Shown here: positions 4,908 through 51,504 of the stretch, piece after piece
Layout: each line of letters starts with the position of its first letter
Position numbering within the stretch: position 1 is the stretch's first letter
Assembly: GCA_018825985.1 (NCBI GenBank)
Contig: JAHKAP010000047.1
Span: forward strand, 2,719-66,718
Direction of reading: 5' to 3'
Source: Candidatus Omnitrophota bacterium
GTDB lineage: Bacteria; Omnitrophota; Gorgyraeia; Gygaellales; Profunditerraquicolaceae
DNA: 64,000 nucleotides
Position numbers and translations under genes: made by a program
The notes under the pieces: generated by a model
Database searches by the model: none
Seen by the model: the letters and a program-made list of their open reading frames with translations, nothing else
Told to the model about the DNA's origin: nothing

Positions 4908-4922
4908 TATGGAAAGAAAAAA

Positions 4923-4944
4923 ACGGGGTCAGAATTATTTTTAG
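4923..4944. repeat. Half-REP (GGGGTCAGAATTATTTTT) at the 5' flank of RAYT. It is followed by a CCTCCC...GGGAGG hairpin that contains the RBS.
   Basis: Same core as the eight or more paired REP copies elsewhere in the window. Confidence 0.7.
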
Positions 4945-4993
4945 TTAGATTTTACCTCCCGACACGTCTATTAATATTAGAAGGGAGGATCTT

Positions 4994-5683
4994 ATGGCCA
5001 GAAGACCGCGTTTATTTGTATCCGATGTACCCTATCACGTTGTTCAGCGAGGCAATAATAAAATTCCTATTTTTTTAGCCGATCAAGATTACCGCATCTT
5101 TTTGGATACGCTCCAAGAAGCCAAAACCAAACACCCTTGTTTTATTTACAGCTATTGCCTGATGCCTAACCATTTCCATTTACTTATTGAACCTAAAGAA
5201 GATAATAATGTCAGTTTATTAATAAAGTTATTGGGAGCCAAATATGTGCGGTATATCAATAAAAACTATGAACGTTCAGGCACTCTTTGGGAAGGTCGTT
5301 TTAAATGCTCATTGATTGATAAGGAATTATATTTTTTAACCTGTCTTCGTTATATTGAAATGAATCCAGTAAGGGCTGGCATAGTCAATTCTCCAGAACT
5401 ATATCGGTGGTCGAGTTATCGGGTTAGGGCAGTTGGTGAAAGAAGTTTTATTGTAGACATGGATCATTGGTATGATAATCTGGGTTCTAATGCAGAAGAA
5501 CGTCAAAATAAATATCGACAATTCTTCCAAAATTCAATATCTGATTCCGCTTTGCAACTTCTACGAGAAATGACTAATAAGAATGGTATCGTAGGCAGCG
5601 TAAACTTTAAAACGCGAGTAGAACAATTTGTCCACAGAGAGATTGTTATAAGGTCTGCTGGCAGGCCGAAGAACGAAAAATAA
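4994..5683 (+). mobile_element. REP-associated tyrosine transposase (RAYT; IS200/IS605 TnpA-like Y1 HuH transposase)
   Basis: HuH motif (PNHFHLLIE) and catalytic Tyr region (RYIEMNPVRAGIV). Inverted half-REPs flank both ends. Confidence 0.85.
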
Positions 5684-5696
5684 TTCTGACCCCATT
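5674..5696. repeat. Half-REP (AAAAATAATTCTGACCCC) at the 3' flank of RAYT. It overlaps the RAYT stop codon.
   Basis: It is the inverse complement of the left half-REP. The decamer ATTAATATTA occurs just inside both flanks. Confidence 0.7.
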
Positions 5697-5708
5697 AATA
5701 TTAATAAG

Positions 5709-9671: not shown

Positions 9672-9745
9672 AATAGGAAAATAGGGACAGCGACTATTTT
9701 TTTAAATATAGTATGTGAAAAAAATAGTCGCTGTCCCTATTTTCT
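9672..9745. repeat. REP-like hairpin, type B (AAATAGGGACAGCGACTATTTTT ... AAAAATAGTCGCTGTCCCTATTT)
   Basis: 23-bp inverted repeat. A second copy lies at 40152-40216. Confidence 0.7.
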
Positions 9746-9789
9746 TGATTGACACCCGCCTAAAACAGTGGTATATTAAGAAAATATTA

Positions 9790-9838
9790 TTGGGGTCAGA
9801 ATTATTTTTTTGTTAAAAAATAATTCTGACCCCATTTT
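9790..9838. repeat. Paired REP type A (GGGGTCAGAATTATTTTTTTGTTAAAAAATAATTCTGACCCC)
   Basis: Inverted pair with a 4-nt loop. Same core as the RAYT flanks. Confidence 0.8.
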
Positions 9839-9860
9839 AAAACGAAAGGGGATGATATTA

Positions 9861-10028
9861 GTGCCGGAAATCGAAATTAAGAAAGGCGAGTCTTTTGAAG
9901 GGGCGATGCGCCGTTTCAAGAGAAAGATCGAAGAAGAAGGGATTTTGAGGGAAGTTAGGGACCGTAAGCATTACGAAAAGCCCAGTGAGCGCAAAAGAAA
10001 GAAGATGAAGCAAAGCAAAAGAAGATAA
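9861..10028 (+). CDS. rpsU: 30S ribosomal protein bS21
   Basis: [27 protein letters not shown] aligns with the E. coli S21 N-terminus. A GTG start with an AAGGGGA SD is preferred over the ORF-track ATG at 9810, which lies inside the REP. Confidence 0.8.
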
Positions 10029-12873: not shown

Positions 12874-12943
12874 AAAATGGGGTCAGAATTATTTTTTCTC
12901 TGGTCTACTTTCTAAAAAAATAATTCTGACCCCATTTCTCAGA
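12874..12943. repeat. Paired REP type A
   Basis: AAAATGGGGTCAGAATTATTTTTT...AAAAAATAATTCTGACCCCATTT. It ends 6 nt before the pepP-like start. Confidence 0.8.
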
Positions 12944-14576: not shown

Positions 14577-14735
14577 TGAACCCAGCACCTTCTTTATAAA
14601 TCAGTAATTATAATACAACGCTTTAGTTTCGTTAATAAGAAAGAAGGTGCTGGATGAATCCCGCACCTTCCAAAAGATTAAATAACTTAAAGCGAACGGT
14701 TTTAATATCATTAATAAAAAGGAAGGTGCTGGATG
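14577..14735 (+). repeat. Two head-to-tail copies of an ~80-bp MITE-like element with 11-bp terminal inverted repeats (CCAGCACCTTC / GAAGGTGCTGG). Each copy ends in SD plus ATG; the second copy supplies the accB start.
   Basis: Copies at 14577-14656 and 14657-14735, plus a third copy at 24741-24820. The ends are conserved: GAAYCCMGCACCTTC … AATAARAARGAAGGTGCWRGRTG. Confidence 0.7.
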
Positions 14736-15194
14736 AATATCAAAGAAATTAAAGAGATGATCAATCTCATGAATGAAAACGAATTAGTGGAGCTGGAAGT
14801 TGAAAAAGAGGGTATGCGTATAAGGTTAAAGAAAACCACGGCTGAGACTCAAGGATATAACGGGCCGGTAGTCATAGATAGGCAAAAGATGCCTGAGGCA
14901 TCGCATCATAAAGAAACCGGCATTTCGGCAATTACCGAAAAACCCCAGATAAAAACAGTGGAAGTAAAGGCTCCGATGGTCGGGACTTTTTACCGCGCCC
15001 CTTCTCCGGAAGCGCCTCCTTATGCTGAAGTAGGCCAGGTTGTAGAGCCGGGCCAGGTGGTCTGTATTATCGAAGCTATGAAATTAATGAATGAGATTAA
15101 ATCTGAGATCCGGGGGAAGATCGTTGATATTCAGGTTGACAATGCCGAGCCGGTTGAGTTTGGCCAGCCGATGTTCATTATAGAACCTCTATAA
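14733..15194 (+). CDS. accB: Biotin carboxyl carrier protein of acetyl-CoA carboxylase
   Basis: Biotinyl-lysine motif EAMKLMNEI. Confidence 0.9.
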
Positions 15195-23153: not shown

Positions 23154-24742
23154 ACGAAAATAATATTTTTGGAAGACAGGTCTATTTGGATATCCTGGAA
23201 AAGCGGATCAATGATTTTAAAGAAGGCTACCGTCAGAATATCGCTATAATTGGCGATGAGTCTATCGGCAAGACTTCTCTGGTCTTTGAATTCCTGCGCA
23301 AATTTTATGATAATAGCGTTATTACCGTATATCTTGAAGTAAGGCCGGAATCCCTGGCTACTTTCGGTAAGCGGTTTATCGGGGTATTACTTTATAATTT
23401 CCTGGTTAATAGCAATATCAATCTAAAAGAAGATCTGGATTTTCTAATCAATAAATCTTACTCTTATATACCGAAAACCGTAGACAAGATCCGGGTGATA
23501 CTTAAGGATTTGGAAAAAAGGAAAAAAGATAATATCTTCTTTGACCTGCTATCTCTCTGCGATCTAATTTACCAGGAGACCGGAAAGCTTAGCCTGGTGA
23601 TCATGGATGAGTTTCATAATTTTGACAACGCCCAAGCAAAGAAGTTATACAGCGAATGGTCCAAGAGCCTGATGGTCCAGAAGAATACAATGTATATAAT
23701 CCTGAGTTCGTCTGTCTGCCGGGCCCGGGCCCTGCTCTCCAAAGAACTTTCTCTTTTATTTGGCAATTTTCAGGTAGTTGAGATAGAGCCTTTTGACGCC
23801 CAAACCACGGAAGAATACTTAAGCCTTAAATTAGAAGGTATTAATATCGATCCGGAGTTGAAAAATTTCCTGGCCCATTTTACCGCCGGCCATCCGTTTT
23901 ACCTGGAGATCATTGCTAATCTTTTGCTGAAATCTCCGCAGGTTGACCTGGTTGACCTGCTGGAGGATATTATTTTTGAATCATCCGGGATTCTTAACCA
24001 GAGGTTTCATAATTATCTTAAACGGTTTGAATCCGGAAAACATAGTGATGTCCATATCGCGATCCTTTATTCGGTCTCCCGGGGCCAGAATAAGATCAAA
24101 GACCTTGTCCATATTACCCACACGCCTAAAAAAGAATTAGAGTCCCGGATCAATTATTTATTAAGCGTTGATGCCCTTAGCCGCAACGGAGATTTTTTAA
24201 AGATAAATGACCGGGTTTTTAGTTTTTGGCTAAGGTTTGTTTACCAGCAGAAATTGCGTTCTTTTACATATGATGCCCAGAATCAAAAATCGGTATTCAG
24301 GAAGAATATCGAGGATATGGTCGGTGAATTCCTGAATAGCTCAGGAAAGAGCGTTTTTCAGAGGGTAAAGGAGCTATTGAACCTTTTTGCGGATGACTCG
24401 ATCCAGATAGAAAAAAAGAGGCTTAAGCTTACTCACTTCCGCGAGATAAAAAAGGTGGAATTTACTAATCGCGGGATCAGGGAGGGGTTGGTCTGCCGTT
24501 CCGGCGAGAGCCTCTGGATCATCGCTTTCAAGCCGGATGTTTTGAATGAAATAGATATCAGTGAATTCGCCAGGGAATGCAAAAAATTCCGCTATAGACT
24601 CCAAAAAAAAATTATTATCACTATGCGGGAGATGGACGCTAATAGCCGTTTAAGGGCATTAGAGGAGAAGATTATGACTTGGGATGTGGATAATCTAAAC
24701 CAGATATTGGATCTTTATTCCCGGCCAAGGATAGCTATATGA
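23150..24742 (+). CDS. Archaeal-type AAA ATPase (PF01637-like) with a DUF234 C-terminal domain
   Basis: Walker A (IGDESIGKTS) and Walker B (VIMDEFH). The architecture is typical of ATPase_2/DUF234 proteins. Confidence 0.55.
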   Translation: MNENNIFGRQVYLDILEKRINDFKEGYRQNIAIIGDESIGKTSLVFEFLRKFYDNSVITVYLEVRPESLATFGKRFIGVLLYNFLVNSNINLKEDLDFLINKSYSYIPKTVDKIRVILKDLEKRKKDNIFFDLLSLCDLIYQETGKLSLVIMDEFHNFDNAQAKKLYSEWSKSLMVQKNTMYIILSSSVCRARALLSKELSLLFGNFQVVEIEPFDAQTTEEYLSLKLEGINIDPELKNFLAHFTAGHPFYLEIIANLLLKSPQVDLVDLLEDIIFESSGILNQRFHNYLKRFESGKHSDVHIAILYSVSRGQNKIKDLVHITHTPKKELESRINYLLSVDALSRNGDFLKINDRVFSFWLRFVYQQKLRSFTYDAQNQKSVFRKNIEDMVGEFLNSSGKSVFQRVKELLNLFADDSIQIEKKRLKLTHFREIKKVEFTNRGIREGLVCRSGESLWIIAFKPDVLNEIDISEFARECKKFRYRLQKKIIITMREMDANSRLRALEEKIMTWDVDNLNQILDLYSRPRIAI

Positions 24743-24820
24743 GCCCCGCACCTTCTAAAATATTAAATCATTAAAGGCAAATGGTGTTAGGGTTATGAAT
24801 AAGAAAGAAGGTGCAAGGTG
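24741..24820 (+). repeat. Third copy of the ~80-bp MITE-like SD-carrying element. It supplies the SD and GTG start of the yfcE-like gene.
   Basis: About 80% identical to copy 2 at 14657-14735. It begins at the stop codon of the upstream ATPase gene. Confidence 0.7.
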
Positions 24821-25309
24821 AGGATCGGGGTGATCGCAGATACGCATGTTCCGGACAGGGCTAAAAAAATACCGGATGAAGTTCTAAAGGCCTTTAGAAA
24901 TGTAGATATGATTATCCACGCCGGAGACCTGGTCGTTTTAAACGTGTTGGAAGATCTTAAAAAGCTCTGCCCTGACGTGAGGGCAGTCTGCGGCAACATG
25001 GATTGTATTCATGTGCGTAATAATTTTCCCGATAGAATGCTGATCAAAGCAGGCGAAGTTAATATCGGGGTAATGCATGGGTTTGGGCCGGTCGGGAGCT
25101 TAATGGATGTTTTAAAAGAGGCTTTTAAGAAAGAGAAAGTGGGCCTGATCATATTCGGGCATTCTCACAAGGCATTTAATAAAAATAAAGATAATATCAT
25201 TTTTTTTAATCCCGGAAGCCCGACTGATAAATTATTTTCATCCTACAATTCTTATGGTATTATAGAGATTAAAGGCAGGAATATTGATGCCAAGATAGTT
25301 AAATTATAA
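24818..25309 (+). CDS. YfcE/MJ0936-family metallophosphoesterase
   Basis: GVIADTH, HAGDL, GNMD and GHSH motifs. Confidence 0.8.
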   Translation: MRIGVIADTHVPDRAKKIPDEVLKAFRNVDMIIHAGDLVVLNVLEDLKKLCPDVRAVCGNMDCIHVRNNFPDRMLIKAGEVNIGVMHGFGPVGSLMDVLKEAFKKEKVGLIIFGHSHKAFNKNKDNIIFFNPGSPTDKLFSSYNSYGIIEIKGRNIDAKIVKL

Positions 25310-25310
25310 A

Positions 25311-25390
25311 TGTAAATGGGGTCAGAATTATTTTTCTTATTTTACTTACCCGAAAAATAATTCTGACCCCATTTAGACCCCATTTACAAG
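25311..25390. repeat. Paired REP type A, flanked by a 25-bp direct duplication (25283-25309 and 25391-25417)
   Basis: GATGCcAAGATAGTTAAATTAtAAA repeats as GATGCgAAGATAGTTAAATTAaAAA. The first copy contains the yfcE stop. Confidence 0.75.
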
Positions 25391-25418
25391 ATCGATGCGA
25401 AGATAGTTAAATTAAAAA

Positions 25419-36465: not shown

Positions 36466-36547
36466 GAAATGGGGTCAGAATTATTTTTTCTTTAGTCTGG
36501 CGCTCGAAAAAATAATTCTGACCCCATTTCTGCTGACCCCATTTCTG
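36466..36547. repeat. Paired REP type A with an extra partial 3' repeat (GACCCCATTTCTG x2)
   Basis: GAAATGGGGTCAGAATTATTTTTTC…GAAAAAATAATTCTGACCCCATTTCTGCTGACCCCATTTCTG. Confidence 0.8.
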
Positions 36548-43794: not shown

Positions 43795-43931
43795 AGAAAT
43801 GGGGTCACAAGAAATGGGGTCACACAAGAAATGGGGTCAGAATTATTTTTTCGTATCAAGTAAAGTAGACAAAAATAATTCTGACCCCATTTCTCAAAAA
43901 TAATTCTGACCCCATTTCTTGACCACATTTC
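43795..43931. repeat. Compound REP type A cluster: three tandem GAAATGGGGTCA half-sites, one full pair, and an extra 3' half
   Basis: AGAAATGGGGTCA x3 … AAAAATAATTCTGACCCCATTTCT x2. Confidence 0.8.
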
Positions 43932-47881: not shown

Positions 47882-47946
47882 GAAATGGGGTCAGAATTAT
47901 TTTTTCTTTATTTTATGTGCTCGAAAAAATAATTCTGACCCCATTA
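47882..47946. repeat. Paired REP type A
   Basis: GAAATGGGGTCAGAATTATTTTTTC…GAAAAAATAATTCTGACCCCATTA. Flanked by the similar 13-mers AATATGAATGAAA and AATTATGAATAAA. Confidence 0.8.
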
Positions 47947-51383: not shown

Positions 51384-51477
51384 AAATGGGGTCAGAAAAT
51401 GGGGTCAGAATTATTTTTTCTTTTTGTTTTATTGTAAAAAATAATTCTGACCCCATTTTCTGACTGACCCCATTTAC
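51383..51477. repeat. Compound REP type A (two left halves, one right half plus an extra partial)
   Basis: AAATGGGGTCAGAAAATGGGGTCAGAATTATTTTTTC…AAAAAATAATTCTGACCCCATTTTCTGACTGACCCCATTT. Confidence 0.8.
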
Positions 51478-51504
51478 AACAATGATAGGAGGGTTTTAAA
51501 AGAA

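Follow-up and report, generated by a model that had tools for sequence, protein, structure and literature searches.

Results

Organization of the yfcE/HIT junction

The locus described here lies in a 64,000-nt stretch of DNA from a Candidatus Omnitrophota bacterium, referred to below as the window. It comprises a gene for a YfcE-family metallophosphoesterase, a REP doublet and a gene for a HIT-family protein, with one copy of an imperfect direct repeat on each side of the doublet (Table 1).

Table 1. Coordinates of the yfcE/HIT junction, of related elements in the window and of palindrome-containing junctions in other loci.
Feature	Position	Strand	Description
YfcE-family metallophosphoesterase (phosphodiesterase) gene, 163 aa	24818-25309	+	ORF; Pfam Metallophos_2, 1.7e-34; NCBIfam TIGR00040 yfcE, 6.8e-35, above cutoff
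Left repeat copy	25280-25310 (robust core 25286-25310)	+	Last 9 codons of yfcE (..NIDAKIVKL), stop TAA at 25307-25309 and 1 nt
REP doublet (REPIN-like), 78 nt	25311-25388		Outer inverted repeat TGTAAATGGGGTC / GACCCCATTTACA
Right repeat copy	25388-25418 (robust core 25394-25418)	+	Now non-coding leader directly 5' of the HIT ATG
HIT-family gene, 160 aa	25419-25901	+	ORF; Pfam HIT, 8.4e-15
Reconstructed empty site			...GTTAAATTATAAA joined to ATGGATAAAC
Other same-family doublets	9788-9837, 12875-12937, 36467-36544, 43797-43917, 47883-47946, 51384-51478 (span 9788-51478)		None with a flanking direct repeat
Cognate RAYT locus	4921-5697	+	Gene 4994-5683 (229 aa) bracketed by inverted REP half-sites at 4921-4935 (+) and 5683-5697 (-)
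Reference sequences for putative RAYT cleavage sites			TGTAAATGGGG / CCCCATTTACA
yfcE/HIT spacers with palindromes	L004 592-676; L005 3496-3582; L077 1690-1823; L078 1690-1851; L079 838-994; L082 1690-1846; L095 808-890

A preliminary description of this DNA had reported a 25-nt direct repeat at the junction with the REP element exactly between its copies. The repeat is present, with coordinates 1 nt further right than given there and 23 of 25 positions matching, and the 78-nt doublet does abut both copies. A sequence search of the window placed GATGCCAAGATAGTTAAATTA at 25286-25306 and GATGCGAAGATAGTTAAATTA at 25394-25414; these are followed by TAAA and AAAA, respectively, to complete the two 25-mers. 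Ungapped extension gives a 31-nt imperfect direct repeat (27/31 matching) with a spacing of 108 nt. In the left copy, AATATT and the codon register agree with the yfcE 3' ends of the sister clade. The right copy has AAA at the stop position where the left copy has TAA, and its last base is followed immediately by the ATG of the HIT gene.

Chance is excluded as the source of the repeat, because neither shuffled sequence nor random pairs of positions in the window reach its score. There were no repeat matches in 100 shuffles, the flank-alignment score of 20.5-21 compares with a maximum of 14.5 among 3,200 random window pairs, and the comparison with shuffled flanks gave p<0.0005. Just one other non-REP short-range direct repeat of at least 22 nt occurs in the 64 kb. 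The same structure is found at the site in the window and in four assemblies of sequencing runs, which excludes an assembly artefact.

The 108-nt spacing corresponds to 36 codons and places the right copy in the yfcE frame (KIDAKIVKLKNG followed by a stop, whose TAA overlaps ATGGATAA of HIT). Read-through from yfcE into the right copy in this frame is blocked by stops inside the REP, and the in-frame spacing is probably a coincidence (a 1 in 3 chance).

A REP/REPIN family with its own RAYT

The arms of the doublet form a perfect 24-nt inverted repeat (25313-25336 / 25352-25375) around a 15-nt loop, with an extra half-site. The right terminus, the 11-nt GACCCCATTTA, is present in tandem (25364-25374 / 25375-25385). 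The predicted RNA fold of the doublet has an energy of -35.1 kcal/mol (z=-9.15). A comparison with Rfam gave generic hairpin matches only, none above the gathering score, and no terminator signal was found; the doublet was thus rejected as a known RNA family or a terminator.

In the 64 kb, the arm AAATGGGGTCAGAAT is found 21 times as a half-site, where 0.3 would be expected; these half-sites fall at about 9 loci, all of them between ORFs. Most belong to inverted doublets, whose loops vary and which often carry additional half-sites in tandem. Approximately 20 kb from the doublet lies a RAYT gene with matches to Pfam Y1_Tnp (PF01797, 3.5e-16) and to the NCBIfam REP_Tyr_transpos equivalog (85 bits, cutoff 80); HFH within MPNHFHLLI and the RYIEMNP sequence are visible in its protein. 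Since an inverted REP pair brackets this gene, the family is of the REP/REPIN type with its own RAYT, and the doublet at 25311-25388 is a genuine RAYT-associated REP/REPIN. The half-site counts and the RAYT profile matches therefore bear out the REP/RAYT assignment made in the preliminary description.

Extra tandem terminal half-sites with periods of 11-25 nt are carried by 4 of the 7 window doublets (25364-25385, 36522-36546, 43797-43828, 43870-43919, 51384-51396), and many copies in other genomes have an additional TGACCCCATTT a few nucleotides past the right end. The termini of the family appear prone to local duplication, or the arrangement is BIME-like. One further window doublet, at 9788-9837, sits between a promoter-like TTGACA...TATATT and the start of a gene resembling that for ribosomal protein S21 (both by eye; region 9730-9870). 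This doublet would be within a 5' UTR, since the promoter-like sequence precedes it and the gene start follows.

The exact 22-mer REP arm AAATGGGGTCAGAATTATTTTT was found in 65 loci (L011-L075) from approximately 20 species-level genomes, nearly all labelled Omnitrophota; among the loci are some from MAGs with the label Planctomycetales and, as a single match, one (L022) on a 1.75-Mb 'Gammaproteobacteria' contig. Such breadth is unusual for a REP family, and horizontal transfer or long persistence could explain it. In two genomes of other species recovered via the REP arm (L021 and L050), the RAYT region is 76-78% identical to that of the window at the nucleotide level. Loops in the family range from 2 to 34 nt, yet some are identical across unrelated genomes, as for the window copy at 43829 and L020. 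The L020 locus was considered as a close relative and rejected, having the loop in common but no synteny.

Orthologous junctions carry a single yfcE 3' end

Three outgroups with about 60% YfcE identity (L007, L008/L009 and L010) have in common the conserved gene order upstream ATPase - yfcE - HIT - HD. Each carries a single yfcE 3' end, whose stop codon is separated from the HIT ATG by 1-3 nt (e.g. ...attattaagttaTAAgATGGATAAG). In a wider sample, the spacer is -11 to +3 nt in 30 of 56 yfcE-to-HIT loci, and a tandem duplication of the yfcE end was found in none of the 56 other junctions. The closest distinct relatives, L004 and L005 (~75% protein and ~80% nucleotide identity), have a spacer of 85-87 nt with a palindrome of a different family (CCACCCCGTAGGTGGA). 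No GATGCNAAGATA copy was found 5' of HIT in these two loci, nor a significant flank repeat; the sister clade too has a GTTAAAT motif 5' of the HIT ATG. No relative between 99% and 75% protein identity was found in the databases, and intermediate states within the lineage (empty, A-A', A-REP) were not available.

The preliminary description had proposed a comparison of related yfcE-HIT junctions, and the insertion-free outgroups do carry one copy of the yfcE 3' end. Both 25-mers without a REP were seen at none of the orthologous loci, which upholds the reading of the repeat as a duplication of the yfcE 3' end. Comparison with the outgroups, in which one copy is present and 1-3 nt separate the stop from the start of HIT, identifies the flanking repeat as a derived duplication that coincides with the insertion.

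The same comparison bears on whether the stop codon was gained or lost. Among outgroups, the junction most often reads ...K[L/I] TAA + 1-3 nt + ATGGAYAAR, and the left copy joined to the HIT start (...AAATTA TAA A, then ATGGATAAAC) matches the outgroup form TTA TAA N ATGG exactly. The stop is thus most simply ancestral: it was probably part of the duplicated segment and was lost from the right copy (TAA to AAA, T to A at 25415), which is the simplest history given the outgroups. The preliminary suggestion that the insertion recreated a stop for the upstream gene is not supported, as the left copy and the ATG already rebuild the outgroup junction. Read-through of the right copy would give the C-terminus KLKNG, 3 residues longer than the usual ending ...K[L/I], and in the -8 overlap forms found elsewhere this ending is replaced or extended by only one or two residues.

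Ancestrally, the HIT start directly adjoined the yfcE stop, across a gap of 1-3 nt. No Shine-Dalgarno (SD) sequence is evident for HIT, which was probably once translationally coupled to yfcE. A search of the right copy for a small ORF restoring such coupling to HIT found none, and no promoter or terminator signal or consensus was found at the yfcE/HIT junction.

A separate observation concerns the DNA just 5' of yfcE. This spacer (24740-24820) and the efp-to-accB spacer (14610-14745) have a leader-like motif of about 85 nt in common (78% identity). It includes a mini-ORF, M[N/S]PAPSK[R/I]LN, and the GCACCTTC within the codons of this mini-ORF is complementary to an SD-like GAAGGTGC further downstream. 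In the case of accB, a second copy of the complete 38-nt initiation region (SD and ATGAAT) lies 79 nt upstream (14622-14659 / 14701-14738). Next to efp, the motif may serve as a leader that sequesters the SD and encodes a proline-containing peptide.

Age and fixation of the duplication

The site is filled and 100% identical in six datasets: the window, SRR2544004, SRR27458547, SRR27458548, SRR10598176 and GCA_018827565.1. The four assemblies of SRR runs carry the full structure, while GCA_018827565.1 covers only its right part. No empty-site allele of the same species was found among the six. The repeat copies differ at 2/25 to 4/31 positions, for a Jukes-Cantor distance of 0.085 (25-mer) to 0.14 (31-mer). 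At four-fold sites, two sister genomes have diverged by 0.23 and the window from either sister by ~0.6, so that the divergence of the copies amounts to ~40-60% of the former and ~15-25% of the latter, figures that rest on only 2-4 substitutions and carry a large error. The event nevertheless postdates the separation from the sister clade; its age is at the species level, and the structure is fixed. It had been called recent in the preliminary description, a term that is not supported by this divergence or by six identical, filled datasets.

In GCA_018827565.1 (JAHJXR010000220.1; L001, positions 1-112), the left REP arm (from window position 25314) adjoins, in place of yfcE, 112 nt that the window lacks. 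The assembly was probably joined here through the repeat, although the REP may have been the site of a genuine rearrangement.

The duplication is unique but the junction is repeatedly invaded

A flanking repeat was found at 1 of 50 doublets of the family, with a score of 21 and a next best of 9.5. These 50 comprise the doublets of the window and of the 22-mer-arm loci, from approximately 20 genomes, for which complete flanks were required. The duplication was rejected as a family-wide signature, and as the way in which the family moves, since the 49 other doublets lack the repeat (scores of 9.5 or less) and the seven other window copies are at background. It was also rejected as a general feature of palindromes in the clade: 709 kb of Omnitrophota DNA contained 132 palindromic clusters, of which only this locus has a flanking repeat.

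Expanded yfcE/HIT spacers elsewhere contain strong hairpins of at least 5 other families (L004/L005, L077, L078/L079, L082 and L095), with a three-hairpin composite common to L078 and L079. Each invading palindrome starts directly 3' of the yfcE stop (TAA/G.., TAG/GGG..), and palindromes that follow stops are also found elsewhere in the window. A duplication of the yfcE end was not detected at these other invaded junctions (p=0.99 for L004; p>0.15 for L077, L078, L079, L082 and L095), and L005 has a marginal flank repeat, the 8-mer AGTTAAAT (p=0.04-0.06). Across Omnitrophota, at least 6 palindrome families have thus entered the 1-3-nt yfcE/HIT junction independently of one another, and the site appears to be a hot spot for REP-like elements. 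Additionally, at a second orthologous site, the AAATGGGGTCAGAAT doublet at 36467-36544 in the window corresponds to a different palindrome, GGGACGGTT...AACCGTCCC, in the sister genome JBDRLN (L066 1321-1461). That palindrome resembles the L095 element and suggests that palindrome families turn over or replace one another at fixed sites.

We also considered whether selection made the duplication obligatory for insertion at so tight a junction, and rejected this, because at least 5 lineages tolerate an insertion there without it. The duplication is therefore not needed for viability, and selection does not explain it. The locus is a one-off insertion scar, neither a signature of the family nor a requirement for survival.

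Discussion

Comparison with known elements

The family resembles the REPIN/RAYT systems of P. fluorescens SBW25 and the REP/BIME and TnpA-REP systems of E. coli in its inverted palindromic doublets that form one long hairpin and occur in many copies per genome (PMC3116915, PMC2817692, PMC3733652). Similarly, the window has one RAYT gene bracketed by inverted REPs, and copies lie just after stops within operons. It differs in its variable loops with conserved arms, in the exact 22-mer found across approximately 20 species-level genomes, and in the 28-31-nt flanking duplication of the present copy, which is undescribed in PMC3116915 and PMC3733652. In the literature searched, we found no paper linking REPs to Omnitrophota and no prior report of REP/REPIN-type elements in this phylum.

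With IS200/IS605 elements (HUH/Y1 TnpA) the family has in common the transposase family PF01797, the use of subterminal hairpins as recognition elements and, at 49 of 50 doublets, the absence of a target-site duplication (PMC2817692). In contrast, the present copy has a long flanking duplication, and REPINs are non-autonomous; the RAYT appears to be domesticated or single-copy. The view that long target duplications are atypical for REP/RAYT elements, already expressed in the preliminary description, is confirmed for REP and IS200-type elements by the literature: target duplications are not known for Y1/HUH transposition (PMC2817692), and a wide-ranging survey of REPs uses neither 'duplication' nor 'direct repeat' in its main text (PMC3733652). 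The mechanism of REPIN integration has never been directly observed, and only excision footprints have been reported (PMC3116915).

The order of direct repeat, inverted-repeat element and direct repeat, flush with the terminal inverted repeats, recalls MITEs and IS elements mobilized by DDE enzymes with target-site duplications. With DDE elements, however, each copy is flanked by a duplication of short, fixed length (2-14 bp). A DDE-type MITE was rejected here, as the duplication is ~30 bp at 1 of 50 doublets and lacking at the other 49.

The GTAG- and CGTC-tagged REP superfamilies (Di Nocera et al. 2013, PMC3733652) likewise abut or overlap coding ends, often supply or adjoin stops, and form dimers that fold as one stem-loop. 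In contrast, the arm of the present family begins (T)GTAA-ATGGGG, (T)GTAAATGGGG, which by eye is not a canonical GTAG or CGTC tag. The sister-clade element at the same junction, CCACCCCGTAGGTGG, contains GTAG.

Origin of the duplication

Both copies of the repeat abut the inverted-repeat termini exactly, and a two-step origin would need a coincidence or selection to produce this arrangement. For this reason we favor a single aberrant insertion or repair event that would have made both the presence of the element and the duplication, a reading to which we give a probability of about 0.45. The ancestral 1-3-nt gap between the yfcE stop and the HIT ATG would have received a REPIN in this one event. 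The element may have been joined into breaks staggered by ~30 nt, with the gaps then filled in, or a template switch in replication or repair may have copied the REPIN and resumed ~30 nt upstream on the original template; inspected by eye, the two junctions gave no clear template-switch microhomology. Such an aberrant route would differ from the usual duplication-free one of the family, which is expected for the HUH/Y1 single-strand 'peel-and-paste'. Afterwards the right copy, free of coding constraint, would have lost its vestigial stop and drifted at its 5' end, and the structure would then have become fixed in the species. Replication around these hairpins may well be error-prone, as the 11-nt terminal duplication at this doublet and the extra half-sites at 4 of 7 window doublets suggest, and tandem duplications of apparent slippage type are common at the termini of the family.

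The main alternative, which we consider somewhat less likely, is that the duplication came first. A ~30-nt tandem duplication of the yfcE-3'/HIT-5' region would have arisen by slippage (for example at AAT microhomologies, at 25280 and before the ATG), and a REPIN would have entered later at the joint. A tandem copy would be neutral, because the first copy keeps the stop, and palindromes of the clade habitually land after stops, so that the joint is an expected landing point. Ordinary transposition chemistry would suffice, and the absence of a repeat at 49 of 50 copies agrees with this order; a REP between the copies would moreover stabilize an unstable tandem duplication, a form of survivorship bias. 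It requires, however, that two rare events struck one site and that, of ~31 positions open to the insertion, one within ~1 nt of the joint was used. No allele or relative with the A-A' arrangement was found, and a tandem yfcE end is found at 0 of the 56 other junctions. Improbable in our view is the opposite order, in which a REPIN inserted cleanly between stop and ATG and ~30 nt of the yfcE end were later copied past the hairpin by ectopic repair or conversion, possibly selected to restore the context of HIT. Clean insertions at this position are known from at least 5 other lineages, and a restored upstream sequence could help a HIT gene that has no evident SD sequence and was probably coupled to yfcE. 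No simple mechanism, however, copies 31 nt over a 78-nt hairpin to exact abutment; the other lineages tolerate the insertion without such repair, and no small ORF re-establishes coupling.

At least as improbable is recombination between staggered alleles, one with a REPIN after the stop and one with a REPIN ~31 nt upstream inside yfcE, where a crossover within the REPIN would join yfcE..A-REP to REP-A-HIT. REP copies are recombination substrates and lie at the REP join-points of enterobacterial tandem duplications; the junction is a recurrent target of palindromes, and exact abutment on both sides would follow. This scheme nevertheless needs a second insertion of the same family that truncates yfcE, as well as the recombination, and no such allele is seen in any dataset. 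Readings that have no connection with the REP (a local repeat of ordinary, ancestral kind, a similarity by chance, an artefact of assembly) could appeal to the AT-rich, low-complexity sequence of the region and to the GTTAAAT 5' of the HIT ATG in the sister clade; they are effectively refuted by the scores against shuffled and window nulls (p<0.0005), by the single copies in outgroups and sisters, and by the six identical datasets.

A broader idea is that REPIN integration can proceed or misfire via a replication-coupled route (staggered breaks, fork template switch) that duplicates ~30 nt of target, with the present locus as a natural footprint. We regard this as doubtful. If true, such misfires might be the only REPIN entry to a zero-spacer junction that spares both the C-terminus of the upstream protein and the native leader of the downstream gene. 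No mechanism can be generalized from a single instance (0/49 other doublets and 0/~129 other palindromic clusters), and we make no mechanistic claim from one old, fixed case, which is not evidence for a new mechanism.

Significance

A long duplication flush with both ends of a REPIN is a rare clue that integration, or a later repair, can involve the resynthesis of ~30 nt. As an element of a known kind, the present copy is a modest curiosity for those who study REPIN integration, and the context of the invaded junction is perhaps the more useful result. Invasion of the yfcE/HIT junction in Omnitrophota by at least 6 palindrome families, together with the turnover of families at a second orthologous site, makes this clade well suited, as a natural system, to the question of what draws REP-like hairpins to positions directly after stop codons.
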